Assembly: GCA_050122795.1 (NCBI GenBank)
Contig: JASFIG010000001.1
Coordinates: 1 to 45,834 of the forward strand
Reading direction: 5' to 3'
Source: Desulfobacterales bacterium
GTDB taxonomy: Bacteria > Desulfobacterota > Desulfobacteria > Desulfobacterales > JAHEIW01
DNA length: 45,834 nucleotides
Positions 2 to 45,834 of this stretch are shown in pieces. The notes below the pieces were generated by a model, which ran no database searches, was not told the DNA's origin, and was given only the letters and a program-made list of their open reading frames with translations. Both the position numbers and the translations under genes were made by a program. The first letter of the stretch is position 1. Every line of letters begins with the position of its first letter.

Positions 2-1078
2 CCCAGGCCCTTTCCGCTGCAACAGGTGTGGGCTTCCACCCTGGGGATCGGGTTTGCCCTTTTTATTTTCACCACCATGCAGGCTATGGGGGGCTGGGTA
101 TTATCTCTGTCACCCGGCGCTAATGGGGGGACCATATTGCCGCTTCAAAGCCTTATCGACAGCGGGGGTAATGCTCTGGTGCCCTTGCTGATTCATCTAA
201 TGAAAGACACGGCGCCCTTTGCCGTGGGCATTCTGGCGATCTGTGCGCTGGCGGCCATGCAGTCCACCGGTGCGGCCTATATGTCGACCGCCTCTGGTAT
301 GCTGACGCGCGACATCGTCAAGCGGCATATTGTCAAGGATATGACTGAAACCGGACAAACCCACTGGGGCCGTATCACAGTGCTGATCGTTGTCGGGTCG
401 GCCCTGATCTTCGCCACCCTGGTGCCCGGCGCCATCGTTATGCTGGGCGCCTTTGCGACCTCTTACGGGTTTATGATGTACCCGTCCCTGATTGCGGTCT
501 GTTACTGGAAATTCCTGACCCGTCAGGGAGTGGTCACCGGTCTGATCTGCGGTATGATCGCGGTGTTCTTAACCTTCAGGTTCGATCTGGGACTTCCCTG
601 GGGCTACAATCCGCTGACGATTTTTGCCGCCGGCTGGGGCATCCTGTTCAACCTGCCGGTTGCCATCCTTATCAGCCTGTTCACACAGCCCACGGGTGAG
701 CTGGATGCCAAACAGAAGGAATGGCACGCATTTATTAAAGAACACGCATCTTTACCGCCGGAAAAGCGTGGGCTGATCAAATGGGGCTGGATTGCAGCTT
801 TGGTCTGGTTCTTTTTTGCCATCGGCCCGGGCGCTGTGATCGGTAACACCATCTTTGGTGATCCCGCAGCGCCTGCTTCATGGGCAAATGGAATGCCGTC
901 GATCTGGATCTGGCAGATTATTTTCTGGGTGCTGGGTATCGGCATGATGTGGTTCCTGGCCTACAAGCTGGAGATGTCGACCAACATCACCACCGACTTT
1001 GAGGTCTTGAAACACGATATTTACGAAGAGGAGCCGGCCGTTGCCGAGTCGACCTCGCGGGGACAGTCAGGCGTTTAA
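2..1078 (+). CDS. Sodium:solute symporter (SSS/SLC5) family transporter, C-terminal ~358 aa; the 5' end lies outside the window
   Basis: The frame is open from the window edge, with no stop before the GTG at 26. It has many hydrophobic helices and an SSS-like segment (AICALAAMQSTGAAYMSTASGMLTRDIV). It ends at TAA 1076-1078 and is followed by a strong hairpin terminator. Confidence 0.75.
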   Translation, partial: PRPFPLQQVWASTLGIGFALFIFTTMQAMGGWVLSLSPGANGGTILPLQSLIDSGGNALVPLLIHLMKDTAPFAVGILAICALAAMQSTGAAYMSTASGMLTRDIVKRHIVKDMTETGQTHWGRITVLIVVGSALIFATLVPGAIVMLGAFATSYGFMMYPSLIAVCYWKFLTRQGVVTGLICGMIAVFLTFRFDLGLPWGYNPLTIFAAGWGILFNLPVAILISLFTQPTGELDAKQKEWHAFIKEHASLPPEKRGLIKWGWIAALVWFFFAIGPGAVIGNTIFGDPAAPASWANGMPSIWIWQIIFWVLGIGMMWFLAYKLEMSTNITTDFEVLKHDIYEEEPAVAESTSRGQSGV

Positions 1079-18668: not shown

Positions 18669-19535
18669 TTATAAATTTAGGGATTTTGATAAAGTATTCC
18701 AGATTCTTTTGACTGCCTCGCCAGCGCTTGAGTTACCGTTATATTGAAAAATTGTTTTGCCTTGTACCATGGCTTTTGTGAAAACCGGATCAAATGGAAT
18801 CCTTCCCAAGCAGGACAGGCCTTCATCTCGTGCAAAATTTTCAATATCACGGGTTAGGTCCGGATTGAGGTCAAATCTGTTGATGCACACCATAGCCGGC
18901 ACCTTAAAATGATTTGCCAGTTGCACAACCCGTTCCATATCGTGAATGCCTGAAAGCGTGGGTTCTGTCACAATAAGTACAGCGCTGGCACCACCAATGG
19001 AGGCAATTACCGGACACCCGACGCCGGGAGGACCGTCTGTCAGTATAAGACCAAGATGCTTTTCATCTGCCAGTCTTTTGGACTCTTGGCGCACGAGCGT
19101 TACCAGCTTACCGGAATTTTCCTCAGCAATTCCAAGCCTGGCATGAACCATGGGACCGAATCGGGTTTCTGAATAAAACCAATGACCGCACCTATTTTCA
19201 GGGAAATCGATCGCCTTTTCCGGACAAAAATAGACACATACGCCGCAACCCTCGCAGTCGATGGGATTGACTTTAAAATCATCACTGATTGCGCTAAACT
19301 TGCAAAGATCTACGCACCGTCCGCATTCTGTACATTTGTCTTTGTTAATATCGGCCGTGTGACCGGATTTAAATTCGGCACGCATGCATATATACGGGTC
19401 CATAATCAGGTGAAGATCTGCAGCGTCCACATCTGCGTCGCAAAGAACTTTGCTTTCAGCTAATGATGCAAATGATGCAATTAGACTGGTTTTTCCTGTA
19501 CCGCCTTTACCACTGATGACAATCAATTCTTTCAT
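18669..19535 (-). CDS. MinD/ParA-superfamily P-loop ATPase with an inserted 2x[4Fe-4S] ferredoxin domain
   Basis: 288 aa. Deviant Walker A SGKGGTGKTS. CTECGRCVDLCKFSAI and CEGCGVCVYFCPEKAI. Conserved DGPPGVGCPVIAS. Confidence 0.85.
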   Translation of the reverse strand: MKELIVISGKGGTGKTSLIASFASLAESKVLCDADVDAADLHLIMDPYICMRAEFKSGHTADINKDKCTECGRCVDLCKFSAISDDFKVNPIDCEGCGVCVYFCPEKAIDFPENRCGHWFYSETRFGPMVHARLGIAEENSGKLVTLVRQESKRLADEKHLGLILTDGPPGVGCPVIASIGGASAVLIVTEPTLSGIHDMERVVQLANHFKVPAMVCINRFDLNPDLTRDIENFARDEGLSCLGRIPFDPVFTKAMVQGKTIFQYNGNSSAGEAVKRIWNTLSKSLNL

Positions 19536-19551
19536 GTTTGGTGTATCGTTT

Positions 19552-20412
19552 TTAGCATTTGGTGTTTATTGTTTGATGGCTGGAAAGATGCCTAATTTTT
19601 TCATAGAGCGCTAAGAATCTCTCCTTCCATTCCGGCATGACGTCAACCAGCATCTCTCCCCTTGAATAGGCTTCCGCAATCTGCCGATCAAACGGAATTT
19701 CCATAAGAATAGGCAGGCTCTCTCGAAGGGCATATTCTCTTGCTTTGTCATCTCCCAGATCAGACCTGTTGATGATCAACCCCAACGGAATATTAAGTAT
19801 TTGAGCTGCACCCACCGCCAGTTTCAGGTCATATAAACCAAAAGGCGTTGGCTCGGTAACCAGCAGCACAAAGTCGGTATCTTTCATGGATGCAATCACC
19901 GGGCATGAGGTCCCTGGAGGGGCGTCGATGATGGTGAATTTACCAGGATTCTGGTAGGCGCGCACTTTTTTGATCAGCGGCGGCGACATGGCTTCACCAA
20001 CCCGTAATCGGCCATGAATAAACTCGATACCGTTGCTGTGACCCTTTTGAATGACGCCGAGCTCCCGACCACCTTGAATAATCGCCCCTTCAGGACAGAC
20101 CTCCCAGCACCCGCCGCAGCTATGGCAGAGTTCTTCAAATATCAGTACATTTTCATTCAGGACTGCAATGGCCTTAAACTGGCAGATTTCTGCACATTTT
20201 CCACAATAGGTGCACTTGTCTTCATCGACTTCAGGCACCGGCATCGAAACCGTCTCCGAACCCGCAAATGACGGATTGATAAATAGATGTGCGTTGGGTT
20301 CTTCCACATCACAGTCCAGCAGCTGGACATTGGAGCCTATCGATCGGGCCAAATTGGTTGCCACTGTCGTTTTTCCGGTCCCGCCTTTTCCACTGGCAAT
20401 GCTAATGATCAT
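19552..20412 (-). CDS. MinD/ParA-superfamily P-loop ATPase with an inserted 2x[4Fe-4S] ferredoxin domain (paralog of 18669-19535)
   Basis: 286 aa. SGKGGTGKTT. CTYCGKCAEICQFKAI and CHSCGGCWEVCPEGAI. DAPPGTSCPVIAS. Confidence 0.85.
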   Translation of the reverse strand: MIISIASGKGGTGKTTVATNLARSIGSNVQLLDCDVEEPNAHLFINPSFAGSETVSMPVPEVDEDKCTYCGKCAEICQFKAIAVLNENVLIFEELCHSCGGCWEVCPEGAIIQGGRELGVIQKGHSNGIEFIHGRLRVGEAMSPPLIKKVRAYQNPGKFTIIDAPPGTSCPVIASMKDTDFVLLVTEPTPFGLYDLKLAVGAAQILNIPLGLIINRSDLGDDKAREYALRESLPILMEIPFDRQIAEAYSRGEMLVDVMPEWKERFLALYEKIRHLSSHQTINTKC

Positions 20413-20413
20413 T

Positions 20414-21001
20414 TCATAATTTCTCCAAATTATTAATGCGCGTTAGGATACTCTTCATCTGTTGGTTTAATCTTTCGGCCTGCTCTTTGAGGTTTTCCAA
20501 TTCCTGATTTCCGGACGTACTATTTTCTTCTTTATCTTTGACGCTTCGATTTCCGGACGTATTGAAACTTCTACCCATGCCCCCACGGCCTCCCATTCCG
20601 CGTCGAACCCCAGAGCCACGTCCTATCCCGGTTCCTGCTCCCATGCCAAAATGGCTGTCAACTGTTGGTTTATTACTGGGTTTGAGATTGCCGGTGGCAT
20701 ATTTTTTCAAAACGTCTCTTATGGTTCCCTGTTCTCCTGTAAACAGCTCAATTCCGGCTGCCAAAAGCGTATCCACCGCATTTGGGCCACAATTACCGGT
20801 TATGACAACCTCAACCCCTTTGGAGGCCAGAAATTGGGAGGCTTGAATGCCGGCACCACCTCCCATAGCAGCACTTTCGTTTGGGTAAACTTCAAACCGC
20901 ATATCGTCAGAATCAACCACTAAATAATATGCACAACGGCCAAATCGAGGATCGAGCTGGGAATCCATAGTATTTCCGGTGGAGCTAACAGCAATTTTCA
21001 T
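20414..21001 (-). CDS. NifX/NifB-like domain fused to a Gly/Arg-rich, coiled-coil (DUF5320-like) tail
   Basis: 195 aa. N-terminus MKIAVSS...LDPRFGRCAYYLVVD...GVEVVITGNCGPNA. C-terminus GMGAGTGIGRGSGVRRGMGGRGGMGR...LENLKEQAERLNQQMKSILTRINNLEKL. Confidence 0.8.
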   Translation of the reverse strand: MKIAVSSTGNTMDSQLDPRFGRCAYYLVVDSDDMRFEVYPNESAAMGGGAGIQASQFLASKGVEVVITGNCGPNAVDTLLAAGIELFTGEQGTIRDVLKKYATGNLKPSNKPTVDSHFGMGAGTGIGRGSGVRRGMGGRGGMGRSFNTSGNRSVKDKEENSTSGNQELENLKEQAERLNQQMKSILTRINNLEKL

Positions 21002-21878: not shown

Positions 21879-23186
21879 CTAAGCGCCATAAACGGCCACA
21901 TCTTTTAGATCATCCTGCAGATATTCGCGTTCATTTTCACCGAGGATGCCTAAGGCCAAACAGATCAGGGTCCACAGGTGAATGACACCGTAGCCACCGC
22001 CGTAGTGCTCGCTAAGCTCATGAATCTGGGCATGGCAATTGTGACAGCCTGCGATGCAATAATCCGCTTTGGTGTTCTGAATTTGAACGTCCTTTAAGCG
22101 CCCAAATTCCAGCCGCTGTTTTTTGAGGCCGGATTGCAGGAATCCGCCGCCGCCACCGCAGCAGTAATTATTGGAGCGGTTGGGGGTCATATCGATGAAA
22201 TTTTCTTCCCCGACAACGGTTTTGACCACAAAGCGTAGATCTTCGGCAATGGGATCGCCGTAGCTTTTGCGTACGATCTGGCAGGGATCCTGAACCGTAA
22301 ACTTGATTTTTAGATCCTTGTTCCAATCCGAATTGACGTTCAGTTTACCTTCACGGATCCATTGCGCATAATATTCATAGATGTTTTTAACCTCGAATTT
22401 GTGGTCGATGTTGAATTTTTTCAGTCCTGCCAGGACTGAGAAGGTCACGTGACCTCACTCGGTATTTAAAAAAATCTGACAACCAAGGTCATCGGCCTGT
22501 TTGGCGGTGGTGCGCACAATGTGTTCCCAGGCGTCATTGTCAGCCAGAAACATGCAGTAATTTTCGCCGCCCCAGCCTTTGGACCCGTAAGTCCAGTCTG
22601 CTCCCGCCAGGTGCAAAATTTTCCACAGGGGCACCATCTCATCGGGTTCTGTCACGGGCTCTCTGGAATTCTGATTTAAAAAGAAATAGGCGCCTTTTTT
22701 GTCAATCGGTGCCTGCATGTCTTTAAAATCCGGCTGGGCTTCCTGGTATTCTTCTAAGACATCTTCGACCACAAAGGTGAAATCCTCCGGAGATGCCCCC
22801 ATGGCACTGCAGCTGTCATTTCTCAGAGCCATATCGCAGGAGCCCAAAATGCCTTTGGGTCTTTCATCTCGTGGCCTGCTGCCGCGCACATTGTAAATCA
22901 GCTGGGGAATATCGATTTTCATCGGACAGACATAGATGCAGCGCTGGCACATGGTGCACATCCAGGGCCAGTCCGATTTAAGAATTTCATCGTCCAGTCC
23001 CAGAGCGGCCATCCGCAAAAATTTACGCGGATCCATACCCGCCAGACCTGTCGCCGGGCACCCGGACGAGCAGGCCCCGCAGGTCAGGCATAGATTCAGA
23101 TTGCCGCCTTCTGGCAAAAGCTGCATGACCTCGTCCATGAAACGGCTTTTCTTTTTGCTGCCCAGTTTGACAACCTCATCAGACAT
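21879..23186 (-). CDS. Selenocysteine-containing Fe-S oxidoreductase (2x[4Fe-4S] plus CCG domains; HdrD/GlpC/DsrK-like), 435 aa with Sec at TGA 22455-22457
   Basis: ORFs 22455-23186 and 21879-22448 share one frame and are joined by a single TGA (...QIFLNTE-U-GHVTFSVLAGL...). N-terminus CLTCGACSSGCP and CTMCQRCIYVCP. C-terminal CCG domain DPCQIV, NYCCGGGGG, AGCHNCHAQI. A 7-bp hairpin lies 15 nt downstream of the TGA. Confidence 0.75.
22421..22439 (-). promoter_or_regulatory. Candidate SECIS hairpin for the Fe-S oxidoreductase UGA
   Basis: The minus strand reads UCAGUCC-UGGCA-GGACUGA (perfect 7-bp stem, 5-nt loop), starting 15 nt after the UGA. Confidence 0.45.
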
Positions 23187-28713: not shown

Positions 28714-32280
<3,567 letters not shown>

Positions 32281-32463
32281 TATGAAAATTTGGGTGGTCC
32301 GTATTGGCGGTTGGATTCTATCCGTTGTTTATTGGTTATGCGGAATTAAATACTGGGATTTATTCGGTGGCCGCCAAAATGATGATCGGTCAAATCACAG
32401 AATCCGCAAATTAAATGATAATCGTTTAAGATAGCCATACCATTCAAAAGGAGAAGATCCTTT

Positions 32464-32709
32464 ATGGCGTTTAAATTTCAAATTGACGAAGATCGGTGTA
32501 AGGGATGCGGGCTGTGTGTAAGTGTATGCCCTAAAAAAGTTTTGGAAATTTCCGAAAATGTGAACGCTAGGGGTTACTTTCCGGTCTATCAGGCGCGACC
32601 GGAAGATTGTAATTTCTGCGCGCTGTGCTGCGTGATGTGTCCGGATGTAGCGATCGAAATTATTGAAATCGCGGAAGAGGCGCCTTCAAAAACAAAAGAA
32701 GCTGCTTGA
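32464..32709 (+). CDS. 2x[4Fe-4S] ferredoxin-type delta subunit of 2-oxoacid:ferredoxin oxidoreductase
   Basis: 81 aa. CKGCGLCVSVCP and CNFCALCCVMCP. AAGGAG RBS. Confidence 0.8.
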   Translation: MAFKFQIDEDRCKGCGLCVSVCPKKVLEISENVNARGYFPVYQARPEDCNFCALCCVMCPDVAIEIIEIAEEAPSKTKEAA

Positions 32710-32790
32710 AACCAGAAACAGGTAAAATAGAATACGTTATAATGGATCAATACAGCGAAGGGACTTTGATTTACGTTAATGGGGGATAGA

Positions 32791-33861
32791 ATGGGCAAAG
32801 TATTAATGAAGGGTAACGAAGCCATCGGTGAGGCCGCCATCCGGGCAGGCTGCTCGAACTATTTCGCTTATCCCATCACGCCACAATCAGAGGTGGCCGA
32901 ATACTTATCCCGGCGTCTGCCGGAAATCAACGGCGTGTTTTTACAAGGTGAAAGTGAAGTGGCTGTATCCTATATGATCTTTGGTGCTGCTGCCTGTGGC
33001 GAAAGGGTTTTTACCACCTCATCGAGTCCGGGCATCAGTCTAATGAGTGAAGGCATCAGTTATATCACGTCGGCCGAGTGCCCGGCGGTATTTGTCAATA
33101 TTATGCGGGGCGGACCGGGATTGGGTGGCATTCTTCCTTCCCAGGCCGATTATTTTCAGGCAACCAAAGGCGGCGGTCATGGCGACTATAAGCTGCTGGT
33201 TATGGCGCCGGCCAGTGTCCAGGAAGCTGTTGAGATGGTCATGCAAGCCTTTCCGCTGGCTGAAAAATATCGCAACCCGGTGATGATCCTGGGGGATGGT
33301 CTGATCGGCCAGATGATGGAGCCGGTGGAGTTTCCCGAGCACCTCAAGAGTGAACCGACCAACAAAGACAGCTGGGCCACCAACGGGATGGCCACCCGCA
33401 AGAGCACCAAACGCAATCTGGTTAAAACACTTTATTTAAATCCTGAGGAGCTCAATGATCATAATCTTAAATTAAAAGCCAAATATGAAAAGATGGCATG
33501 TGAGGAGATTCGTTACGAAACCTATAACGTGGAAAGAGATTATCAGGTACTTATTGTGAGTTACGGTACCATGAGCCGGGTGTGCCGAACAGCCGTTGAT
33601 AATTTGCAGGAAGAAGGGCTTGAAGTCGGGATGATCAGGCCCCAGCATCTTTTTCCTTTCCCGCAGGAGGCCATTTTACAGGCCGCCTGCAAAAAGAGCT
33701 GCGACGCCGTTTTGGGTGTTGAGATGTCGATGGGGCAAATGGTTGAGGATATCGAGCGCAGCGTTAAAGGAAAGCGCCCGGTGCGCTGGTATGGAAAATG
33801 CGGCGGTGACGTTCCGACACCTGAGGAGGTCATGGAGGAGATCCGTAAATTGGTCAAATAG
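32791..33861 (+). CDS. 2-oxoacid:ferredoxin oxidoreductase alpha subunit
   Basis: Start chosen at ATG 32791 (MGKVLMKGNEAIGEAAIRAGC...YPITPQSE), a typical Kor/Vor/PorA N-terminus. Confidence 0.85.
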   Translation: MGKVLMKGNEAIGEAAIRAGCSNYFAYPITPQSEVAEYLSRRLPEINGVFLQGESEVAVSYMIFGAAACGERVFTTSSSPGISLMSEGISYITSAECPAVFVNIMRGGPGLGGILPSQADYFQATKGGGHGDYKLLVMAPASVQEAVEMVMQAFPLAEKYRNPVMILGDGLIGQMMEPVEFPEHLKSEPTNKDSWATNGMATRKSTKRNLVKTLYLNPEELNDHNLKLKAKYEKMACEEIRYETYNVERDYQVLIVSYGTMSRVCRTAVDNLQEEGLEVGMIRPQHLFPFPQEAILQAACKKSCDAVLGVEMSMGQMVEDIERSVKGKRPVRWYGKCGGDVPTPEEVMEEIRKLVK

Positions 33862-33973
33862 TTAAATGGTCGACGGGTTGAATTAATTTAAAGTTTAACC
33901 ATCTGTCCTTTTTATATCAAACGAATTAACCAGTTGACCATTCAACCGATTGACTGAACATAGGAGAAAATAA

Positions 33974-34741
33974 ATGGGAAAAACATATCAGAAACCCAAA
34001 GCGCTCTCCCATCGGATGACCCATTACTGTCCGGGCTGCACCCATGGTGTGGCGCACCGGTTGGTCGCTGAAGTTATTGACGAGTTGAATATCCGGGACC
34101 GCACGGTGGGTATCGCCCCGGTGGGCTGCGCCGTTTTAGCCTATGAGTATTTTACGTTTGATTTTCAGGAAGCTGCCCACGGCCGGGCCCCGGCCATGGC
34201 TACCGGCATCAAACGGGTTCGACCCGATCTGATGGTGTTTACCTATCAGGGGGATGGGGATCTGGCGAGCATTGGAACTTCAGAAATTATCCATGCGGCC
34301 AACCGGGGTGAAAAGTTTACGGTCATCTTTATCAATAATGCAGTTTATGGAATGACCGGCGGACAGATGGCGCCGACGACATTGCCGCAGCAAAAAACAA
34401 CAACGTCACCTCAGGGGCGAAATGTAGACGAGGTGGGGATGCCCATGAAAATGGCTGAAGTGCTTGCTGCCCTGGAAACACCGGGATATATCGCCCGGCA
34501 ATCGCTCATCAAACCTAAATACATTGTCAAAGCAAAGAAAGCCATTAAGAAGGCCTTTACCTGCCAGGTGCAGCATCGAAGTTTTAGCTTCGTCGAATTG
34601 ATCAGCACCTGTCCGACCAACTGGGGAATGATACCGGTAGAAGCAGTCAAATGGGCCGAAGAGAACATGCATGCGTATTATCCATTGGGCGAGTACAAGA
34701 CGCCTGAGAAAGCGACTGAACCGCAAAAGCGTGCTGCTTAG
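33974..34741 (+). CDS. 2-oxoacid:ferredoxin oxidoreductase beta (TPP-binding) subunit
   Basis: 255 aa. YCPGCTHG, and GDGD...NNAVYGMTGGQ (TPP-binding motif). Confidence 0.85.
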   Translation: MGKTYQKPKALSHRMTHYCPGCTHGVAHRLVAEVIDELNIRDRTVGIAPVGCAVLAYEYFTFDFQEAAHGRAPAMATGIKRVRPDLMVFTYQGDGDLASIGTSEIIHAANRGEKFTVIFINNAVYGMTGGQMAPTTLPQQKTTTSPQGRNVDEVGMPMKMAEVLAALETPGYIARQSLIKPKYIVKAKKAIKKAFTCQVQHRSFSFVELISTCPTNWGMIPVEAVKWAEENMHAYYPLGEYKTPEKATEPQKRAA

Positions 34742-35883: not shown

Positions 35884-35899
35884 TGGCATAATTCATGCA
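35884..35899 (+). promoter_or_regulatory. sigma54 promoter for the GAF-kinase / activator operon
   Basis: TGGCATAATTCATGCA. Its -12 box overlaps the first in-frame ATG (35895) of the kinase ORF. Confidence 0.5.
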
Positions 35900-37226
35900 C
35901 AATGATCAATTGCTGAGAAAAATGAATACACTACACACCCAACTGTCTACCGATTCGGAAATCAGTATCGAAACCTTTTACCGGGTTTTCCGGGACATTA
36001 GCACCCTGGTGCACACCGGCAAAAGTTTAAAAGAGGTCCTGGATCGGGTTGTCTGGAAAGCGACGGATCTGCTCACCGCCAAAGGTGCTTTGCTCAGAAT
36101 CCGCAACCTGGAAACACAGCAGTTTGCGGTTGTGGCTGCATTCGGTCTGGGTGAAAGATATCTGAATAAAGGACCCGTTACGAGCGAAAAAATTATTACA
36201 GATGAAATCCGACAAAACCGGGTTTTGATCATCGATGATATCTGGAAAGCCCCCCGGGTCGAATACCCGCAGGCGGCCTGGGATGAAGGCATCCGCATGA
36301 TTTTAGACATCCCCCTGACCGTTGCAGATCAAATCATCGGGCTTTTAAGAATCTATCTGCCCGAGACCAGAAATTTTTCAGAAGATGAACTTGATTTTAT
36401 GGTTTCCATCGGCGAGCAATGCGCCTGTGCGATCAACAAGGCCCGTCTGATCGAAAACCAGAAAGCCCGTTATGACCACCTGGCCATTCAAACCGAGAAG
36501 ATGTCGGCCCTGGGACGCATGGCAGCAGGGATTGCGCATGAAATCAATAATCCGCTGGCGGGTATTTTACTTTTCAGCTCAAATTTGAGAAAAAAAGTGC
36601 CCGCCAAGGGTGACCTGAAAGAAGGGCTGGATGTCATTGTTCGAGAGACGGTGCGCTGCAAAACCATTATCCAGGAGCTTTTGGAATTCTCTCGTGATCG
36701 GGAGCCACGCAAGGAAATGGCGAATCCGAACGCCATCCTGGAAAAGGCCTTGAAAATTTTGGAAAACGAATTTCGCCTGCATCACATTCAGATCGAAAAA
36801 CATCTTGCCGACGAAATGCCTGAAACACTGCTGGATGAAAACCAGATCGAACAGGTCTTTGTGAATCTGTTGCTGAATGCGGTGCAAGCCATTGAAGAAA
36901 AAGGCATCATCACCGTAACCAGCAGCAACGATAAAGGCCGCGAGAAGGCCCTTATCGAAATTACGGATACCGGCAACGGTATTCCTGCGGAGAATTTAGC
37001 CAAAATTTTTGAGCCTTTTTACTCCACCAAACCCAAAGGTACCGGTCTGGGGCTGGCGGTCAGCTATGCTATTATCAAAAACCACCAGGGCGACATCCAT
37101 GCTTTCAGCCAATCCGGACAGGGTGCCCGCCTCGTAATAGAGCTTCCGATTTTAGCCCAATCCGTGCAGCCGCAAAATCGCTGCCGGGACAACAATAATG
37201 CACCAAACAGCGGAGAGGCCTGTTAA
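35895..37226 (+). CDS. Cytoplasmic sensor histidine kinase (GAF, HisKA, HATPase; NtrB/AtoS-like)
   Basis: 443-aa ORF. The true start is possibly ATG 35922, if the overlapping sigma54 promoter is used. GAF-like region aa ~35-185. H-box AAGIAHEINNPLAGI. HATPase motifs LLLNAVQA, DTGNGI, GTGLGLAVS. Confidence 0.8.
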   Translation: MHNDQLLRKMNTLHTQLSTDSEISIETFYRVFRDISTLVHTGKSLKEVLDRVVWKATDLLTAKGALLRIRNLETQQFAVVAAFGLGERYLNKGPVTSEKIITDEIRQNRVLIIDDIWKAPRVEYPQAAWDEGIRMILDIPLTVADQIIGLLRIYLPETRNFSEDELDFMVSIGEQCACAINKARLIENQKARYDHLAIQTEKMSALGRMAAGIAHEINNPLAGILLFSSNLRKKVPAKGDLKEGLDVIVRETVRCKTIIQELLEFSRDREPRKEMANPNAILEKALKILENEFRLHHIQIEKHLADEMPETLLDENQIEQVFVNLLLNAVQAIEEKGIITVTSSNDKGREKALIEITDTGNGIPAENLAKIFEPFYSTKPKGTGLGLAVSYAIIKNHQGDIHAFSQSGQGARLVIELPILAQSVQPQNRCRDNNNAPNSGEAC

Positions 37227-38653
37227 TGCACGGGAGCCACATTTTGATTATTGATGATGAGCCGGTTGTTTGCGACGGATGCCGGGCCGTGCTTTCAGAA
37301 AAGTACGCGGTAGACGCCTGTTTGACCGGCAAAGAAGGTCTCGATGCGTTTTTAAAAGGACAATATGATTTGGCCCTTCTGGATATGAAACTGCCCGATA
37401 CTGACGGGATGGACATTTTGCGGATCATCCGTCAGGATAAGCCCGGTGCTTATGTGATCGTAATGACCGGCTATTCGACGGTTAAAAATGCGGTTCAGGC
37501 CATGAAATCAGGCGCTTTTGACTACCTGGCCAAGCCATTTACTGACGATGAGCTTCTGTTGGCCGTTGAAAAAGTGATCGAGCACAAACACCTCAAAGAA
37601 GAAAATCTTGCCCTGCGCAATCAGCTATATGAGCAATTTGATTTCAGCAACATTATCGGCGAAGATCGCGCACTTTTGAAAGTCTTTGACGGAATCCGCA
37701 AAGTTGCACCCACAGACAGTACCGTTCTGCTGCAGGGGGAGAGCGGAACGGGAAAAGAGCTTTTTGCGCGGGCCATTCATACCCGCAGCCCCAGAGCTGG
37801 CCGACGTTTTGTTGCCCTGGATTGCAGCTGTCTTTCTCCCAGCGTGCTGGAAAGCGAGCTGTTCGGGCATGTCAAAGGCGCCTTTACGGGCGCCATTCAG
37901 GACAAGGCCGGTATCTTTGAAGTGGCTAACGAGGGGACGCTTTTCCTGGACGAGATTTCCAACCTGACCCTTGAGGTTCAGGGCAAACTGCTGCGCGTAA
38001 TGGACACCCATGAATATAAACCGGTAGGCGCCAGCACCTTCAAAAAAACCGATGTCCGCATCATCGCGGCCACCAACCGCGATCTGAAAATCATGGTGGC
38101 TGAAAATACGTTCAGGGAAGATCTACTTTACCGCCTGAATGTTTTCCCCGTATATCTTCCGCCGCTGCGCGAGCGCAAAGACGATATTCCCAGCCTGGCG
38201 TATCATTTTCTGCGTTTTTTTTGCCGCAAGACCGGTAAGAAAATAGAAGGGTTTAGCGACGATGCCTTGCAAGTACTGGTCAATCAGCATTGGCCGGGAA
38301 ACGTGCGCCAGCTTAAAAATGTGATTGAACGCCTGGTGATTATGGCGGATCAGCGACTGCTCGACGGGCCCCAGCTTTTAGAGCATTTGCACCCCCGAAG
38401 ATCAAATGGTGGTAACAACGCCATCCCGGAAACCATCAAAGAACTCAAGGCTGTGAAGAAACACCTGCTCGACGTGCGCTATGGTGACCTGGAGAAAGCT
38501 TTCCTCGTCAAAGCACTCAAGGCCTGCGACGGCAACATCACGCGTGCGGCTGCCAGGGTGGGAATCAAAAGACCCAACTTCCACACCCTGATGAAGAAGC
38601 ATAATCTGTCCGTCAAAGATTTGAGCCGCATGTCCGACCCGGCGGGACATTAA
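37226..38653 (+). CDS. sigma54-dependent response regulator (NtrC/AtoC family)
   Basis: 475 aa. The start overlaps the kinase stop (TAATG). REC motifs ILIIDDE and DLALLDMKLPDTDG. AAA+ motifs GESGTGKE, GAFTGA, LFLDEIS, RIIAATN. HTH GNITRAAARVGIKRPNFHTLMKKH. Confidence 0.9.
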   Translation: MHGSHILIIDDEPVVCDGCRAVLSEKYAVDACLTGKEGLDAFLKGQYDLALLDMKLPDTDGMDILRIIRQDKPGAYVIVMTGYSTVKNAVQAMKSGAFDYLAKPFTDDELLLAVEKVIEHKHLKEENLALRNQLYEQFDFSNIIGEDRALLKVFDGIRKVAPTDSTVLLQGESGTGKELFARAIHTRSPRAGRRFVALDCSCLSPSVLESELFGHVKGAFTGAIQDKAGIFEVANEGTLFLDEISNLTLEVQGKLLRVMDTHEYKPVGASTFKKTDVRIIAATNRDLKIMVAENTFREDLLYRLNVFPVYLPPLRERKDDIPSLAYHFLRFFCRKTGKKIEGFSDDALQVLVNQHWPGNVRQLKNVIERLVIMADQRLLDGPQLLEHLHPRRSNGGNNAIPETIKELKAVKKHLLDVRYGDLEKAFLVKALKACDGNITRAAARVGIKRPNFHTLMKKHNLSVKDLSRMSDPAGH

Positions 38654-38693: not shown

Positions 38694-38879
38694 GATAACC
38701 AAATGAATTTTTTCGCAATAATCGCAATTGCATGGCGTTGAGGTGTATAGCGCTTCATACGATTGGCCCGATCGGCAGCAGGGTTTCACGGTGATGCCGT
38801 CGATCGCAATATATCGATATGATTTGATAAAACCAGCAGCCCGATTGTTTTTCGAAGCGACCCCGAACATGGCACACAA

Positions 38880-38895
38880 TTTGCCACACAAGGGG
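38880..38895 (+). promoter_or_regulatory. Canonical sigma54 promoter for the REC-hdrA-mvhD-fdhA operon
   Basis: TGGCACACAATTTGCC (TGGCAC-N5-TTGC), 55 nt upstream of ATG 38951. Confidence 0.6.
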
Positions 38896-38950: not shown

Positions 38951-39640
38951 ATGAACGCCATCCAGGAATTGAATATGACCGAACACGGTATTCCGCCTCA
39001 CATTCTGGTGATGGAGGATGAGGCCAGCGTGGCGCAGGGGCTGCAAATGGTGCTGTCGGAAGAGGGCTACGATGTCGATTTGGCCATGACCGGCAGTGGT
39101 GCGCTGAACGCCTTTCACCAAAAGGGCTTCGACCTGCTGGTTGCCGATCTGCGCCTGCCGGACATCGACGGAATGGAGGTCATCCGGCAGGTCAAGGAAA
39201 CCAAGCCCGACACGGAGGTGATTGTCATCACCGGTTACTCCAGTATTGATTCCGCGGTGGAAGCCATGAAGCTGGGCGCCTTTGAGTACCTTCCAAAACC
39301 CTTTACCGATGACCAGTTCAAACAGGCTGTCGACGGCGCTTTGAAGGAGAAAAAGGCGGTTTCAGCCGAAAAACCGGCAGTCGATTTTGAAACCGAGGAA
39401 GGCCAGCTGATTCAAAAGCGGGAGGTGATCCGGGCGCTCGATCGAACCGCGGAAGACCCGGATTTCTGGCTCGATCTAATGGAAAAAGGCTCCGCGGCGC
39501 TGGCAGATTATCAGCTTTCCGGCAGGGCCAAGTATGCCATCAGCCAGGGTGACCTCAACTGGATAAACGAAAATGTGGGCGAGCTCACCCAGAAGCAGTT
39601 GATGTTTATATACAAGCGACTGGAGCGGGAAGCCTGGTAA
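38951..39640 (+). CDS. Response-regulator receiver protein with an uncharacterised ~90-aa C-terminal domain
   Basis: 229 aa with an AGGAGG RBS. REC motifs ILVMEDE, DLLVADLRLPDIDG, VIVITGY, EYLPKPF. I did not recognise the C-terminal part (EDPDFWLDLMEKGSAALADYQLSGRAKYAISQGDLNWINENVGELTQKQLMFIYKRLEREAW) as a DNA-binding domain. Confidence 0.8.
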   Translation: MNAIQELNMTEHGIPPHILVMEDEASVAQGLQMVLSEEGYDVDLAMTGSGALNAFHQKGFDLLVADLRLPDIDGMEVIRQVKETKPDTEVIVITGYSSIDSAVEAMKLGAFEYLPKPFTDDQFKQAVDGALKEKKAVSAEKPAVDFETEEGQLIQKREVIRALDRTAEDPDFWLDLMEKGSAALADYQLSGRAKYAISQGDLNWINENVGELTQKQLMFIYKRLEREAW

Positions 39641-39676
39641 GTTTCAATGTATATATTTTTAATGTGAGGTAATACA

Positions 39677-42600
39677 ATGGGTGACAATAAGGATTTGAAT
39701 GGTGCTGTGATGGTGGTGGGCAGCGGCATTGCCGGTATGCAGGCGGCTTTAGATGCGGCCGATTCGGGCTTTTTCGTTTACGTGGTCGAAAAGTCTGCCG
39801 CCATCGGCGGGGTGATGGCGCAGCTGGACAAGACCTTTCCGACCAATGACTGTTCGATGTGAATTCTGGCACCGAAACTGGTCGAGGTCGGCCGGCACCC
39901 CAACATCGAGCTGCTCACCCTCTGCCAAGTCTCCGCTGTCGACGGCGATGAAGGCAACTTCAGGGTCAGCGTAATCCAGCAACCCCGCTATGTGGATATG
40001 AATAAATGCATTGCCTGCGGCCAGTGCGCTGCAAAATGCCCCAAAAAAGTTGTCGATACATACAATCAAGGTCTGATCAAGCGCAAGGCGATATATGTGC
40101 CTTACTCGCAGGCCGTGCCCCTTAAATACACCATTGATCCGCAGAACTGTATCTACCTGACCAAAGGAAAATGCGGTGCATGCGAAAAAATTTGCCCCAG
40201 CGGCGCCATTCATTTCGATGATCAGCCCAAAGAGATGACACTCGAAGTCGGCTCTGTCATTCTGGCTCCCGGTTTTCAGCCTTATGACCCGGCCGGTGAG
40301 GATATATACGCTTATGACAAGTCAGCGGATGTGGTGACGGCGTTGGAATTTGAACGCATACTTTCGGCCACCGGCCCGTATGAAGGGCATTTGCTAAGGC
40401 CTTCGGCAGCATCTCAGCAAAGACCGCCGCGCAAAATTGCCTGGGTTCAATGCGTGGGTTCCCGGGACATCAACCGCTGTGAAAACGGATATTGCTCTGC
40501 GGTCTGCTGCACAATTGCCGTCAAACAATCCGTGATGGCTAAAGAACACTGCGCCGGACCGTTGGACTGCGCCATTTTTTATATGGACATGCGAACCCAG
40601 GGAAAGGATTTTGATCGGTATTTTGAAAACGCCGGCCGCAAGGGGATTCGCTTCGTTCGATCCCGCATCCATTCCATCACCCCTGCCAGCGACAGCGAAG
40701 ACCTTCTGATTCGGTATGTAAATGAAGATGGATCGACAACCGAGGAGGCCTTCGACATGGCGGTGCTTTCAACCGGCTTGCAGGTTGCCCCCGAGGTCTC
40801 GCAACTTTCCAACCGCCTGGGCATTGAACTCGATCCCTATCGGTTTGTGCAGTCAGACAGTTTTCATCCGGTGGCGACTTCCAGACCGGGAATATACGCC
40901 TGCGGCGCATTTACCGGCCCTAAAGATATCCCTCAATCGGTTATGGAAGCCAGCGCGGCGGCCTGCGCAGCAACTGAAAATCTGGCTGAAGCTCGCCACA
41001 GCCTTACTGCCGCAAACGAAACGGCCCCGCAAAAAGATGTTCGGCGGGATCCACCTCGAATCGGTGTATTTGTTTGCAATTGCGGCATCAACATCGGCGG
41101 TGTGGTCGACGTTCCCGCTGTGGTCGAAGATGCCAAAACGCTGCCAAACGTGGTGTATGTCGAAGAAAATCTGTTTACCTGCTCCCAGGACACTCAGGAC
41201 AAGATAGCAGCGGTCATCAAGGAAAAAGGCCTGAATCGCATCGTTGTTGCTGCCTGCACTCCGCGGACTCACGAGGCACTTTTTCAGGAAACACTGACGG
41301 GTGCGGGTCTGAACAAGTATCTGCTGGAAATGGCCAACATTCGCAATCAGGACTCCTGGGTCCACGCCAACAATCCCGATGCAGCCACCCAAAAGGCTAA
41401 AGATCTCGTGCGCATGGCAGTGGCCAAGTCTTCGTTACAAAGCCCGTTGCTGCAAACCGAATTGCCGATCAATCATTCCGCGCTGGTTGTAGGCGGCGGT
41501 GTTGCCGGCTTGACGGCCGCGCTGGCTCTGGCCCGTCAGGGGTATCCGGTGCACATCGTAGAGCAGTCGGATCGTCTCGGCGGTAATGCCCGGCGACTCC
41601 ATCACACTTACCGGGGAGAAAATATTTCAGACCATTTGCATGAACTTAGCGAAGAGATCAGATCAGATGATCGGATCACCATTCACATGGAAACCCGCAT
41701 CTCGAATGTTGCCGGTTTTATCGGTAATTTCAAGACCGAGCTTTTAAAACATTCAGGGTCTGATTCCGTTGAACATGGTGTTGCCATTCTGGCCACCGGC
41801 GCCAAGGAACATCAGACCGATCAATATTTATACGGCCAACATCCCGCTGTGGTCACCCAGCTGGAACTGGATCAACTTTTCAAACAGGATGATCCCCGCT
41901 TGAAGAAGGCAAGCCACGTGGTGTTTATCCAGTGCGTGGGTTCGCGGGAACCGGACCGGCCTTATTGCTCGAAAGTGTGCTGCACACATTCGATTAAAAG
42001 TGCTCTGCTATTTAAAGACCAAAACCCGGACGTCAATGTCTATGTGCTCTATCGTGATATCCGCACCTACGGCAAACGGGAAGATATTTACCGTGAGGCC
42101 AGGGCGCGCGGGGTGCTTTTTTTCAGATATGGTCCGGACCGCAAGCCGGTCGTCAAAGCGGATGGCAACCTTGTGGAGGTCAATTTCAACGACCCGATCC
42201 TGGGCCGGAATTTCTCCGTGCCGGCGGATTTCGTCTGTCTGGCCACCGGTATTGATGCCTATCACGATCTGGAATTGACCCGTAAATTCAAGGTCCCCCT
42301 GGATGCGGACGGATGGCTGCAGGAAGCCCATCAAAAACTCAGACCGGTGGATTTTGCCAATGATGGTATTTATGTTTGCGGTATGGCGCACTATCCCAAA
42401 CCCATCGAAGAAAGCATTGCCCAGGCCCGCGCTGCCGCATCAAGGGCTTTGACTGTTTTGGCCATGGACAGCATCAAAGTCGGCGGGGGTGTTTCTTACA
42501 TTGAACCCGAGCTGTGCTCGGGATGCCTGGGATGCATCGAGGTTTGCCCTTTTGGCGCCATTGCGTTTGACGCCGAGCGAAGGATTGCAGAAGTCAATCC

Positions 42601-42718
42601 GGCACTGTGCAAGGGCTGCGGCGCCTGTTCGGCCGCCTGTCCTTCGGAAGCAGTGGTTTTAAAAGGTTTTAGCCATCAGCAGCTGTACGCCCAGATTAAG
42701 AGCGCCCTGGCTGCCTAA
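39677..42718 (+). CDS. hdrA: Heterodisulfide-reductase subunit A-like flavoprotein (large, two-module HdrA), 1013 aa, selenocysteine at TGA 39860-39862
   Basis: ORFs 39677-39862 and 39992-42718 are in the same frame, with only one TGA between them. The context [17 protein letters not shown] matches the HdrA Cys/Sec site. Two dinucleotide-binding folds ([13 protein letters not shown] and [13 protein letters not shown]). Several 4Fe-4S motifs ([45 protein letters not shown]). CVGSRD is present twice. Confidence 0.85.
39878..39895 (+). promoter_or_regulatory. Candidate SECIS hairpin for the hdrA UGA
   Basis: CUGGUC-GAGGUC-GGCCGG (6-bp stem including 2 G-U pairs), starting 16 nt after the UGA. 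The stem is weak. Confidence 0.3.
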
Positions 42719-42794
42719 TGAGAAAAATAAGATCTTGTTTGTTGTTTTCGTGGTTGAGTATTGAAATCTTCAACCATTCTATTCAGGGGAAAGT

Positions 42795-43322
42795 ATGAAA
42801 CCACAAAATTTTGAACCCAAGATCATCGCCTTTCTGTGTAACTGGTGCACATATGGTGCGGCGGACCTGGCCGGCGTCAGCCGCTTGAGCCACCCGCCCA
42901 ACATTCGGGTGATTCGGGTGATGTGCTCGGGTACCGTATCACCGCATCATATCCTGCGGTCGTTTCAATGTGGAGCAGACGGTATTCTGGTCGGCGGCTG
43001 ACATCTCGGTGATTGCCATTACCTGTACGGTAATTACATGACGGTCAAACGCATGCGGGTGTTGCAGCAGCTTCTCAAATTTGTCGGGCTGGACGGACGC
43101 CTGCATCTGGAATGGATCTCTTCGGCCGAAGCCCAGAAATATGTGCGGGTGGTGACCGAATTTACCGAAAAGATAAAGGCCCTGGGACCGAACCCGCTGA
43201 AAGGGTATACCGAAAAGATTGAAGCTTTAGGGCCGAGAGCCCTTGCCGGTTCAGCTCACACGGATATAGTGCTGCAAAAGCAACGGCCGACTGCCGCAAA
43301 GCGTAAGATTAAAATTGCCTAA
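42795..43322 (+). CDS. mvhD: MvhD/FlpD-like (methyl-viologen-reducing hydrogenase delta subunit family) protein, 175 aa, selenocysteine at TGA 42999-43001
   Basis: ORFs 42795-43001 and 43038-43322 share a frame. The join reads [21 protein letters not shown], which is the family's GC(U)HxGDCHY motif. N-terminus [18 protein letters not shown]. Confidence 0.85.
43018..43034 (+). promoter_or_regulatory. Candidate SECIS hairpin for the mvhD UGA
   Basis: AUUACC-UGUAC-GGUAAU (perfect 6-bp stem), starting 17 nt after the UGA. An alternative hairpin GGUGAU-UGCC-AUUACC overlaps it. Confidence 0.3.
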
Positions 43323-43332
43323 GGAGATGGAA

Positions 43333-44142
43333 ATGATAGAAGAGGTGAAGACCTGGCTTCAGGAGGGCAGGGTGGATATTTTTCTGGGGTACCGCATGAT
43401 GGCGGGGCATCCGCTGCCCCATGTGTTCGTAAAAGATAAATTGCAGGAGGTCGATGAATTGATCACTGGCGATGCCCGCTACCCGCTGGAAAAATTAGCC
43501 GCCGGAATTGCGGCCGAACAACCGGACATCAAAATCGGTATGCTGGCACGGGACTGCAACAAGCGCGCTTTGAATGTTTTATCCATCTGGAACCAATTGG
43601 ATTCCGGACAGCTCGAGACCCTCGACATTAATTGCTGTCCTTCCAATCTCAAAGACGGGGCGCAATGTTCATATTTAAAACCGTCCAAAACCGGATTTCA
43701 TAAAAAGCGGGTCGGTATCGATAATCAATCTGACCCTGAAGATTTTGAAACCTATGATCAGCAGGAACGCTTTACACGCTGGATGAATGAATTCCAACGG
43801 TGCATCAAATGCTACGGTTGCCGCAATACCTGCCCGGTTTGCTTTTGCGAGGAATGCAGTCTGGAGCACCCGGATCTAGTCAAGACCGGAGATTTGCCTC
43901 CGGAGATTCCGATTTTCCACCTGGTCAGGGCAGTGCACATGGCCGGTCGCTGTGTTGACTGCGGACTGTGCGAAGAAGCCTGTCCGGTTGATATTCCCTT
44001 GCGCTTGCTCTATCGCAAGGTCAATCAAATCGTCTCAGATCTTTTCGATTACCGGCCCGGTTCAAACACCGACCAGTCGCCGTTCAGTGTCCTGGGAGAA
44101 ATGCCGCCAGAACCTGAACCACTCAAAGCTGCGGAAGGATGA
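43333..44142 (+). CDS. 4Fe-4S dicluster protein (AsrA/HydB-like CxxCxxCxxxCPxCxC motif), putative electron-transfer subunit between Hdr and Fdh
   Basis: AAGGAG RBS at 43321-43326. The start is ATG 43333 (or 43327). CIKCYGCRNTCPVCFCEEC and CVDCGLCEEACP. Confidence 0.7.
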   Translation: MIEEVKTWLQEGRVDIFLGYRMMAGHPLPHVFVKDKLQEVDELITGDARYPLEKLAAGIAAEQPDIKIGMLARDCNKRALNVLSIWNQLDSGQLETLDINCCPSNLKDGAQCSYLKPSKTGFHKKRVGIDNQSDPEDFETYDQQERFTRWMNEFQRCIKCYGCRNTCPVCFCEECSLEHPDLVKTGDLPPEIPIFHLVRAVHMAGRCVDCGLCEEACPVDIPLRLLYRKVNQIVSDLFDYRPGSNTDQSPFSVLGEMPPEPEPLKAAEG

Positions 44143-44177
44143 TGGAAAACAATCTGTTTTTAGAGGGAGTATAAAAC

Positions 44178-45834
44178 ATGGAAGTTAAATATGTCCCTTC
44201 GGTATGTTCTTATTGCGGAACGGGGTGCGGTGTGCTGTTTGAAGTCATCGACGGAAAATTAACCGCAACCTTGCCGTTAAAAACCCATCCGGTCAATGAA
44301 GGACGGCTGTGCATCAAGGGCTGGAATCTGCATGAATATGTCAACAGCTTTATGCGCCTGAAAGCCCCGCTGATCAAAACCGGCGGACGATTTCGTCGCG
44401 TCTCCTGGGATCAGGCCATTCAGGTGACCGCCGAGCGGTTCACGGACATCATTGCCAAACACGGGCCCGACAGCGTCGGCGTGCTGGTTTCGGCCAAAAT
44501 CACCAATGAGGAAAATTATATCGCTCAGAAGTTTGCCCGGGCCGTCATTGGAACCAACAACGTGGATCACTGCGCGCGTCTTTGACATTCCTCGACGGTG
44601 GCCGGTCTGGCCGCCGCATTCGGCAGCGGTGCCATGACCAATTCCATCGCTGAAATCGAAGACGCCGGCTGTATTTTCGTCATCGGCTCCAACACCACAG
44701 CCTGTCATCCATTGGTAGCACGAAGAATCCTGCGCGCCAAAGACAAGGGTGCCAGGCTGATCGTCGCCGACCCACGCAATATCCACCTGGCCCGGTTCGC
44801 AGACATTGCCGTCAATCATCGACTCGGCAGCGATGTGGCCCTGCTGAACGGAATGATGCACATCATTATCCAAAACAGCTGGCATGATCAGGATTACATT
44901 TCTCAAAGAACCGAAGGCTTCGACGAACTCAAGGTGGCTGTTGAAAGGTATACGCCCGAAAGGGTTCAATCCATTACCGGGGTTAATCCAGTGGACCTTG
45001 AATGCATGGCCGGACTGTATGCCACCAATCCACCGGCCAGTTTGCTTTACGCCATGGGTATCACCCAGCACACCAGCGGGGTCGATAACGTCAAATCCTG
45101 TTGCAACCTGGCGCTTTTGTGCGGCAATGTGGGCGTACACGGCGGGGGAGTCAACCCGTTGAGAGGCCAGAACAATGTTCAGGGCGCCTGCGATATGGGC
45201 GGACTGCCCAATGTCTTTCCGGGCTATCAGCCGGTCAATGACGAGAAGATCCGACAAAAATTTGCAACCGCCTGGAAAACAGACCTTCCCGAGCGGGCCG
45301 GTTATACGGTCACCGAAATGGTTCAGATGATGATTGAGGGCGATTTAAAGGCCCTGTATGTGATCGGCGAAAACCCCAAACTCAGTGACGCCGATCGCAA
45401 TCATTTAAACAAAGCACTGGCCAATCTGGATTTTTTGGTGGTCCAGGGCCTCTTTTTGTCGGAAACCGCCCAGGTGGCCGATGTGGTACTGGCGGCCGCA
45501 TCGGTTGCCGAAAAAGAGGGCACCTTTACCAATACGGAGCGCCGTTGCCTGCGCATTCACAAAGCCATAGAGCCCATTGCCGACACCCTGCCCGACTGGC
45601 AGATTATCGCCAAACTTTCAGGCGCCATGGGCTATGAAATGGCTTACACCGGTCCTGAAGAAATCTTCAATGATTTGGCAACACTGACACCGAAGAGCTA
45701 CGGTGGTATGTCCTATGCGCGTCTGGGTATCGATGGCCTGCAATGGCCGTGTCCCGATTCAAATCATCCCGGAACACCCTATCTGCACAAAGATGAGTTT
45801 GCCCGCGGCAAAGGCCAATTTCATGCCATCGAAT
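44178..45834 (+). CDS. fdhA: Formate dehydrogenase alpha subunit (molybdopterin/tungstopterin), cytoplasmic type, selenocysteine at TGA 44583-44585; the 3' end lies outside the window
   Basis: N-terminal 4Fe-4S motif CSYCGTGCG without a twin-arginine signal. Classic Sec context NVDHCARL-U-HSSTVAGL. The frame stays open to the window end, with RGQNNVQGACDMGGLPNVFPGYQ, GENP and EKEGTFTNTERR. Confidence 0.9.
44596..44616 (+). promoter_or_regulatory. SECIS hairpin for the fdhA UGA
   Basis: CGGUGGCC-GGUCU-GGCCGCCG (8-bp stem with one G-U pair). The stem starts at the 11th nt after the UGA (10-nt gap). From memory, the apical loop GGUCU is the same as in the E. coli fdhF SECIS. Confidence 0.6.

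Follow-up and report, generated by a model that had tools for sequence, protein, structure and literature searches.

The closest described relatives of the locus studied here come from methanogens and from anaerobic bacteria. Methanogens possess FdhAB-MvhD-HdrABC complexes (7BKB, 9T1S/9SFI; Elp-Hdr: 8RVU), in which HdrA is a homodimer and, in the methanococcal protein, selenocysteine (Sec) 197 sits between cluster A3 and the flavin adenine dinucleotide (FAD) (PMC13518236). The class II benzoyl-CoA reductase of Geobacter metallireducens contains BamE, a fused, domain-permuted HdrA dimer with two FAD, clusters E1–E7 and a Cys59-Cys62 pair, whose FAD1 is bifurcating and accompanied by a conserved Lys, whose FAD2 is non-bifurcating, and which passes its high-potential electron to the HdrD-like BamD (bioRxiv 10.64898/2026.04.10.717634). 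In Desulfobacterium autotrophicum HRM2, a genome with many hdrA/mvhD paralogue loci, hdrA/hdrL-mvhD-fdhB-fdhA clusters with Sec in all three of HdrA, MvhD and FdhA were described in 2009 (loci V and VI, Fig. 4; PMC2702500). A bifurcating, Hdr-associated formate dehydrogenase (Fdh) was proposed in 2017 for the HdrBCA-MvhD-FdhBA clusters of Desulfobacula toluolica Tol2 and marine Chloroflexi (PMC5736913), and a putative bifurcating Fdh of delta-proteobacterial FdhA lineages in 2018 (PMC6085437); HdrL-MvhD-FeS proteins of Syntrophobacter have been detected by proteomics. Here we describe a related locus in an uncultured Desulfobacterales bacterium, a relative of sulfate reducers (GenBank assembly GCA_050122795.1, contig JASFIG010000001.1). 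The stretch of 45,834 nt that we analysed (hereafter the window) is the entire contig C1 of an assembly that comprises 529 contigs and is 85% complete, and its positions 38951–45834 hold five co-directional genes for a receiver (REC) protein, HdrA, MvhD, an Fe-S protein and FdhA. We consider it fairly probable that the last four encode a soluble, cytoplasmic formate dehydrogenase complex of four subunits that bifurcates electrons at the first flavin of HdrA. The cluster type and its bifurcating reading are already published for related bacteria; new here are the interpretation of HdrA as BamE-like and of the Fe-S protein as a truncated FdhB, the conservation statistics, and the finding that the cassette most often occurs without HdrBC and with a receiver gene at its head.

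Gene models were read with TGA as Sec and identified by Pfam and NCBIfam profile searches (Table 1). Coordinates and profile matches agree with the gene order given in an earlier note that had been made from the sequence alone (REC, a two-module HdrA, MvhD, an Fe-S protein and FdhA, with Sec in HdrA, MvhD and FdhA), and the intergenic gaps are as tight as it had claimed, measuring, from 5′ to 3′, 36, 76, 4–10 and 35 nt. A canonical sigma-54 promoter (TGGCAC-N5-TTGC) lies 67 nt 5′ of the REC start codon, and promoter-like or terminator-like sites show no excess inside the unit from REC to fdhA. We take REC-hdrA-mvhD-FeS-fdhA to be a real five-gene operon, probably under sigma-54 control.

HdrA matches its solved homologues in three stretches and in permuted domain order (8rvu_a, E = 6.6e-186; 5odc_A, 4e-170; further matches to 7bkb and 9sfi). 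Residues 12–445 make up a first thioredoxin-reductase-like (TrxR) FAD module with an inserted ferredoxin domain, residues 452–600 correspond to the HdrA N-terminal cluster domain, and residues 600–1011 comprise a second TrxR module without the insert, which matches sHdrA (6tjr), plus a C-terminal ferredoxin domain. The two modules share 29% identity, both start with a GxGxxG motif (at 15 and 606), and the chain further carries a C59-x-x-U62 motif and Cys sets for seven [4Fe-4S] clusters. The two modules proposed earlier are thus two TrxR FAD modules in one chain and, judged from its sequence, HdrA is a single-chain fused pseudo-dimer built like BamE. We likened it to BamE by the published description, and there both proteins have two FAD and seven [4Fe-4S] clusters, Cys59-x-x-Cys62 of BamE is the counterpart of C59-x-x-U62, a conserved Lys accompanies the first flavin while the second site is degenerate, and each comes with a selenoprotein MvhD-type adaptor. 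In our protein the Lys, which follows the CC motif of module 1, is invariant in all 52 full-length orthologues, whereas its module-2 equivalent varies among them (K/E/Q/R/L/V/S/H/T). The window HdrA itself carries Lys in both modules (K283 and K774), but the second is not kept by the orthologues, and bifurcation at both flavins was accordingly rejected; the second flavin module is probably structural. The systems differ in their input, which is Fdh via an FdhB-like adaptor here and BamGHI in the case of BamE, in the adaptor itself, which is of normal length here (175 aa) and extended in BamF, and in that no BamD (HdrD-like) protein stands alongside and no BamBC output is found at the window operon.

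A comparison with loci V and VI of D. autotrophicum, made by the paper's description of the genes rather than by alignment, finds the same gene order, Sec in HdrA, MvhD and a cytoplasmic FdhA, and many paralogues in both genomes. The window HdrA differs in having only HdrA-type FAD and Fer4 domains; because it has no GltD/NADH-type extra domain, it is not an HdrL as defined in 2009, and we rejected that label. The HRM2 paper analyses neither the fused-dimer build nor a truncated FdhB (PMC2702500).

Among solved structures, MvhD matches 5odc_D best (E = 4.3e-49), and it also matches 8rvu_F and 7bkb_F. When the Fe-S protein was searched against the PDB as a profile of 27 family members, its residues 123–251 aligned with the C-terminal cluster domain of FdhB (9t1s_M, 7e-35; 8rvu_E, 5e-32; 7bkb_E, 1e-28) and its residues 63–102, weakly, with FdhB 84–125, leaving about 106 residues of FdhB (within 125–275) without a counterpart. 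With the confident part of the AlphaFold2 (AF2) model, residues 1–100, Foldseek places 7bkb_E and 8rvu_E on top, followed by FrhB, the FrhB-like fold being confined to the N-terminal ~100 aa, and none of the 27 family members has a FrhB_N or FrhB_C Pfam match at E ≤ 1. The cluster number was deduced from Cys counts because the AF2 model is reliable for residues 1–100 only; 15 Cys are invariant in the family. We read the protein, on the strength of these alignments, as an FdhB that is truncated and lacks the FAD/F420 part. The description as a 2x[4Fe-4S] protein in the earlier note was right as to its being an Fe-S protein and understated what it is.

Despite its truncation by the contig end, FdhA passes the TIGR01591 cut-off (701 bits versus 666), retains U136-H137 and matches best, among solved structures, the F420-type FdhA 9t1s_L (8e-186), along with 7qv7_S, 1aa6 and 7bkb_D. 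Its first cluster Cys is residue 10, and solved periplasmic enzymes align only from about residue 44, so that there is no room for a twin-arginine translocation (Tat) signal and the protein is predicted to be cytoplasmic. Full-length orthologues are called as 135 + 540 aa, and the 125 C-terminal residues missing here are found in no other contig of the assembly. These matches identify FdhA as a predicted cytoplasmic, Sec-containing formate dehydrogenase of the Mo/W-bis-pyranopterin guanine dinucleotide (Mo/W-bisPGD) type.

Set against the methanogen complexes, the window operon thus encodes four homologous proteins (E-values from 1e-28 to 1e-186), with the Sec of HdrA at the site that corresponds to methanococcal Sec197. 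Unlike them, it lacks HdrBC, its FdhB is without the FAD/F420 part, and its HdrA combines in one chain, as two modules, what is a homodimer there. Since the bacterium has no CoM-S-S-CoB, the high-potential acceptor must also differ from that of methanogens.

All three in-frame UGA codons fall at Cys-equivalent positions, as far as the alignments tell. Their contexts are NDCSM-U-ILAPK in HdrA, VGG-U-HLGDCHY in MvhD and CARL-U-HSS in FdhA, and the Sec positions of HdrA and MvhD align with Cys of solved homologues (in 5odc_D, the Cys of GGCHLGDCHY corresponds to U69). Most motif-matched relatives keep the codon: TGA occurs in 27 hdrA genes (TGC in 2), 57 mvhD genes (TGC/TGT in 15) and 70 fdhA genes (TGC in 2). 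Each UGA is followed by a conserved hairpin with a G/U-containing loop, at +19..36 in hdrA, +20..36 in mvhD and +14..34 in fdhA. The fdhA consensus, from 68 distinct sequences, folds with −15 kcal/mol and has the loop GGUCU as in fdhF, the hdrA consensus was built from 25 distinct sequences, and the mvhD hairpin is nearly invariant in sequence among relatives. In single-sequence folds, the selenocysteine insertion sequence (SECIS) region of fdhA reaches z = −1.9, while those of hdrA and mvhD are no better than shuffles and stand out through conservation only; as all three hairpins lie within conserved coding sequence, their covariation is inseparable from codon conservation. The genome encodes selB (365.8 bits) and selA (618 bits), both above cut-offs, and a selD-like match of 50% identity; borderline matches to Rfam RF01852 (47 bits), considered as selenocysteine tRNA (tRNA-Sec), are tRNA-Ser and were rejected. 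The three Sec codons claimed for the operon thus find support in their Cys-equivalent positions, their retention in relatives and the conserved hairpins. The claimed high density holds as well, with U244 of an HdrD-like protein as the fourth (four in 22 kb), as does the predicted mis-annotation, given that public gene calls of relatives split all three genes at the UGA (hdrA into 59–64 + 912–929 aa, mvhD into 68–96 + 79–112 aa, fdhA into 135 + 526–547 aa).

The Fe-S protein family counts 1434 matches, whose named sources point to Desulfobacterota; among GTDB representatives it occurs in Desulfobacterales, Desulfosarcinaceae, Desulfocapsaceae, Desulfarculia, Desulfobaccales, Syntrophobacterales and others, and cultured carriers are Desulfosarcina alkanivorans PL12 and Desulfacinum hydrothermale DSM 13146. 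For comparison we used 56 loci from several Thermodesulfobacteriota orders (L001 and following) whose Fe-S protein is at least 55% identical to ours. The order HdrA-MvhD-FeS-FdhA is found in 52 of them, and of the other four at least three run into a contig edge. More distant loci retain HdrA-MvhD-FeS without FdhA, which ties the Fe-S protein to the Hdr side. Upstream of hdrA, 32 of the 42 assessable loci carry a receiver gene, so that the HdrBC-free, receiver-headed form is the commonest form of the cassette. Five of the 42 (L003, L010, L013, L018 and L055) instead have hdrB and a gene for a 590-aa fusion of a NarI-like domain with HdrC at this place, which suggests a membrane-anchored, possibly quinone-linked form of the Fdh-Hdr core; in Desulfobacteraceae bacterium Eth-SRB2, the NarI-like membrane domain-HdrC fusion and a 295-aa HdrB precede the cassette at L003:1512–4205. 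These five loci are the equivalent of the clusters of Tol2 and Chloroflexi, which share with the window the HdrA-MvhD-FdhB-FdhA core, the Sec in FdhA and the proposed function (PMC5736913, PMC6085437), and have hdrB/hdrC where the window operon has the receiver gene.

Downstream of fdhA there is no conserved neighbourhood across relatives. In L001, fdhA is followed by a receiver gene and then by the six genes of a membrane [NiFe] hydrogenase of the Ech/Hyf type (L001:13469–19053), a neighbourhood that resembles formate hydrogenlyase and is absent from the other loci; L002 and L005 continue with usp, selD, a TusA-DsrE (yedF-like) gene, hcp and cstA, L004 with a CGGC protein, and L003 with a convergent formyltransferase. 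In the closest relatives, then, selD and the yedF-like gene stand directly 3′ of the triple-selenoprotein operon, followed by hcp (L002:13639–15267, L005:9114–10738, L026:3309–3494; own genome C144:10080–10301). At the end of our own contig C144 we find, with 97% identity, the yedF-hcp stretch that stands 3′ of fdhA in L002 (and L005), and the window therefore probably continues in the manner of L002; C1 and C144 would then be separated by a gap of roughly 2.5 kb, into which the own-genome copy of the L002-type selD falls. The earlier note had advised a look downstream for fdhB, hdrBC or other partners and had named a conventional membrane or NAD module there as an argument against its reading; no fdhB, NAD, hdrBC or membrane module lies 3′ of fdhA in the relatives (L001–L005), which C144, being of the L002 type, fits.

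As the solved homologues of all four proteins touch within Fdh-Hdr or Elp-Hdr complexes, FdhA, the truncated FdhB, MvhD and HdrA very probably form one complex. The direct wiring of HdrA/MvhD to a formate dehydrogenase, put forward in the earlier note, is thus supported by homology and by the gene order kept in 52 of 56 loci, whereas the bifurcation, which it had raised as a possibility, stays a proposed activity. In the mechanism that we favour, formate would be oxidised at the Sec-Mo/W-bisPGD site of FdhA, and single electrons would pass via the FdhB-like [4Fe-4S] clusters and then the [2Fe-2S] cluster of MvhD to the FAD of the first TrxR module of HdrA, beside C59-x-x-U62. At flavin 1 the pair would be split: the electron of low potential would exit to ferredoxin via the inserted ferredoxin domain, and that of high potential via the [4Fe-4S] cluster next to the flavin, its recipient being a protein for which the operon has no gene. 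We expect the reaction to run both ways, so that CO2 could be reduced to formate at the expense of reduced ferredoxin and a second donor; this may be its direction in the cell, and the pyruvate:ferredoxin oxidoreductase (PFOR) and 2-oxoacid:ferredoxin oxidoreductase encoded upstream would then supply the reduced ferredoxin.

Several points weigh against this reading. To our knowledge, every characterised HdrA system passes its high-potential electron to HdrBC or HdrD, and neither is encoded in the operon, with hdrB upstream in only the five loci named above. The potential of formate (−430 mV) lies close to that of ferredoxin, which makes a simple, non-bifurcating enzyme thermodynamically possible. 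The Fe-S adaptor, being without the FAD/F420 domain, misses a defining feature of methanogen FdhB, and its cluster domain is modelled by AF2 with low confidence. Aragorn, which reports 26 tRNAs in this 85%-complete assembly, finds no tRNA-Sec. Finally, we know of no biochemical data on any bacterial member, nor of any bacterial Fdh-HdrA complex that has been purified.

An alternative, which we take as possible though not likely, is that bifurcation does occur and that the partner is encoded elsewhere, for example as an HdrD-like selenoprotein, with DsrC or the quinone pool as the final acceptor. The window indeed encodes such a protein, contrary to the earlier claim that it holds no HdrB/C-like subunit: its N-terminal half is of the HdrC type with 2x[4Fe-4S], its C-terminal half is a CCG domain, its gene is split by the open reading frame track into 243 + 189 aa and lies 16.5 kb upstream of the operon on the opposite strand (Table 1), and four of five genomes checked have the same in-frame TGA in orthologues of 60–84% identity. 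A partner of this kind would agree with the transfer from BamE to BamD, with the five relatives in which hdrB and the NarI-like/HdrC fusion directly precede hdrA, and with the 26 CCG-domain matches in the genome. Its linkage to the cassette is inconsistent among the five genomes: the orthologue adjoins the cassette region in one relative and lies 20–53 kb away in two, but more than 580 kb off in Desulfosarcina alkanivorans, and one genome has only homologues of 32–35% identity. Of 83 loci, none has the HdrD-like gene less than 7 kb from the cassette, and none of the REC-type loci has a CCG protein within this distance. We therefore rejected the HdrD-like selenoprotein as a conserved neighbour, and it remains a candidate partner only.

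Most of the CCG genes of our genome, moreover, already stand beside other hdrA paralogues, which speaks against their serving this cassette. There are about eight further large (~1000-aa) HdrA paralogues (on contigs C100, C63, C72, C270, C2, C41, C253 and C67), followed by mvhD in most of those checked, and on C100, C63, C72 and C270 a CCG (HdrB-like) gene lies directly beside hdrA. The C72 locus continues into a molybdopterin oxidoreductase that is 29% identical to FdhA, and the C41 locus into an Fe-S protein that shares 26% identity with the FdhB-like adaptor. HdrA-MvhD therefore has the look of a unit that is reused with different input enzymes.

We think it unlikely that the complex works without bifurcation at all, as a formate:ferredoxin (or other single-acceptor) oxidoreductase or a CO2 reductase in which the HdrA flavin serves only as a one-electron/two-electron converter or wire. 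The HdrBC/HdrD gene missing from the operon and from most relatives and the close potentials of formate/CO2 and ferredoxin would both fit such an enzyme, and non-bifurcating HdrA-like proteins are known, including the very sHdrA (6tjr) that module 2 matches. The strict retention of the module-1 Lys and of the C-x-x-U pair, which are typical of bifurcating HdrA/BamE, argues in the other direction, as does the cost of a selenoprotein of 1013 aa with seven clusters and two FAD, needless for a simple transfer from Fdh to ferredoxin; the variants with upstream hdrB and a membrane subunit, too, indicate that the core works with a high-potential exit. That there are two enzymes, FdhA and the Fe-S protein forming an ordinary two-subunit Fdh and HdrA/MvhD being merely co-transcribed, is very improbable, for although JGI annotations name the Fe-S protein 'formate dehydrogenase subunit beta' or 'ferredoxin' and contact among the four proteins is deduced rather than measured, the Fe-S protein follows HdrA-MvhD even at loci without FdhA, its homologous domain is that of FdhB subunits inside Hdr complexes, the four-gene order is almost invariant and no other candidate partner enzyme of HdrA/MvhD is conserved nearby.

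Going beyond the four-subunit complex bifurcating at flavin 1, the HdrBC-free cassette could be a self-contained bacterial formate bifurcase with an acceptor new to HdrA systems and with the REC protein acting on the complex, a proposal we make as a speculative and rather doubtful one. Its acceptor may be DsrC, the free HdrD-like selenoprotein or a carrier resembling electron-transferring flavoprotein (ETF) that docks at the cluster beside flavin 1.

The REC protein is itself a well-conserved part of the locus. Its orthologues are 52–92% identical, their C-terminal domain is nearly invariant, and 34 of the 42 assessable loci encode a 229-aa REC no more than 3 kb upstream of hdrA. The C-terminal ~80 aa (about residues 149–229) are all-helical, end in ...GELTQKQLMFIYKRLEREAW, and are found in L001, L002, L004 and 15 further loci. 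This domain has no Pfam, PDB-sequence or Foldseek match, and Foldseek searches of the PDB with the AF2 model of REC (mean predicted local distance difference test score 81) return matches for the receiver half only. Its target may be the enzyme complex rather than DNA or transcription.

Upstream of the operon, a GAF histidine kinase and an NtrC-type activator are encoded as a pair that also precedes the cassette in L001, L002 and L004 and, by its position, likely regulates the operon. Just before them, in the same sigma-54-regulated region, lie genes for a 1187-aa PFOR and a two-subunit 2-oxoacid:ferredoxin oxidoreductase (28717–34741), which, together with cstA downstream in relatives, hints at a ferredoxin-centred pyruvate/2-oxoacid and formate module. 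The gene of the HdrD-like selenoprotein is followed by those of two MinD/ParA-type ATPases with inserted 4Fe-4S domains and of a Nitro_FeMo-Co/DUF5320 protein (18669–21001, minus strand).

Table 1. Positions of the operon, its Sec codons and hairpins, and related features in the window.
Feature	Position	Strand	Basis or remark
HdrD-like selenoprotein gene, 435 aa, U244 (TGA 22455–57), LNTE-U-GH	21879–23186	−	
GAF histidine kinase gene	35895–37226	+	Pfam GAF/HisKA/HATPase_c
NtrC-type sigma-54 activator gene	37226–38653	+	Pfam Response_reg/Sigma54_activat/HTH_8
Sigma-54 promoter TGGCACacaatTTGC	38870–38884	+	Direct sequence reading
REC gene, 229 aa	38951–39640	+	PF00072, 101.6 bits
hdrA, 1013 aa, U62	39677–42718	+	NCBIfam HdrA2, 947 bits in 3 stretches
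hdrA Sec codon and SECIS-like hairpin	39860–62; 39878–39895	+	Loop AGGU
mvhD, 175 aa, [2Fe-2S] adaptor, U69	42795–43322	+	PF02662 FlpD, 170.9 bits
mvhD Sec codon and SECIS-like hairpin	42999–43001; 43018–43034	+	Loop UGUAC
Putative truncated FdhB-like Fe-S adaptor gene, 271 aa	43327–44142	+	Alternative starts 43315, 43333
fdhA, U136, residues 1–552 of ~677	44178–45834 (contig end)	+	TIGR01591
fdhA Sec codon and fdhF-like SECIS hairpin	44583–85; 44596–44616	+	Loop GGUCU

Among the candidate electron-bifurcating units of sulfate reducers and syntrophs, HdrA/MvhD modules are the most widespread and the least understood, and operons such as this one, which public gene calls break up at the three UGAs into six or seven pieces, are hidden from pathway surveys. 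The picture that emerges is a sharper one, of a BamE-like single-chain HdrA with one conserved bifurcation-type flavin site and an FdhB stripped of its F420 part. With a core that comes without HdrBC in most genomes, the high-potential acceptor becomes the question to address, and cultured carriers exist, including, according to the literature, D. autotrophicum (PMC2702500). If the cassette were indeed a self-contained bifurcase, formate oxidation in complete-oxidising sulfate reducers would be linked directly to ferredoxin and to the electron pool of sulfite reduction.

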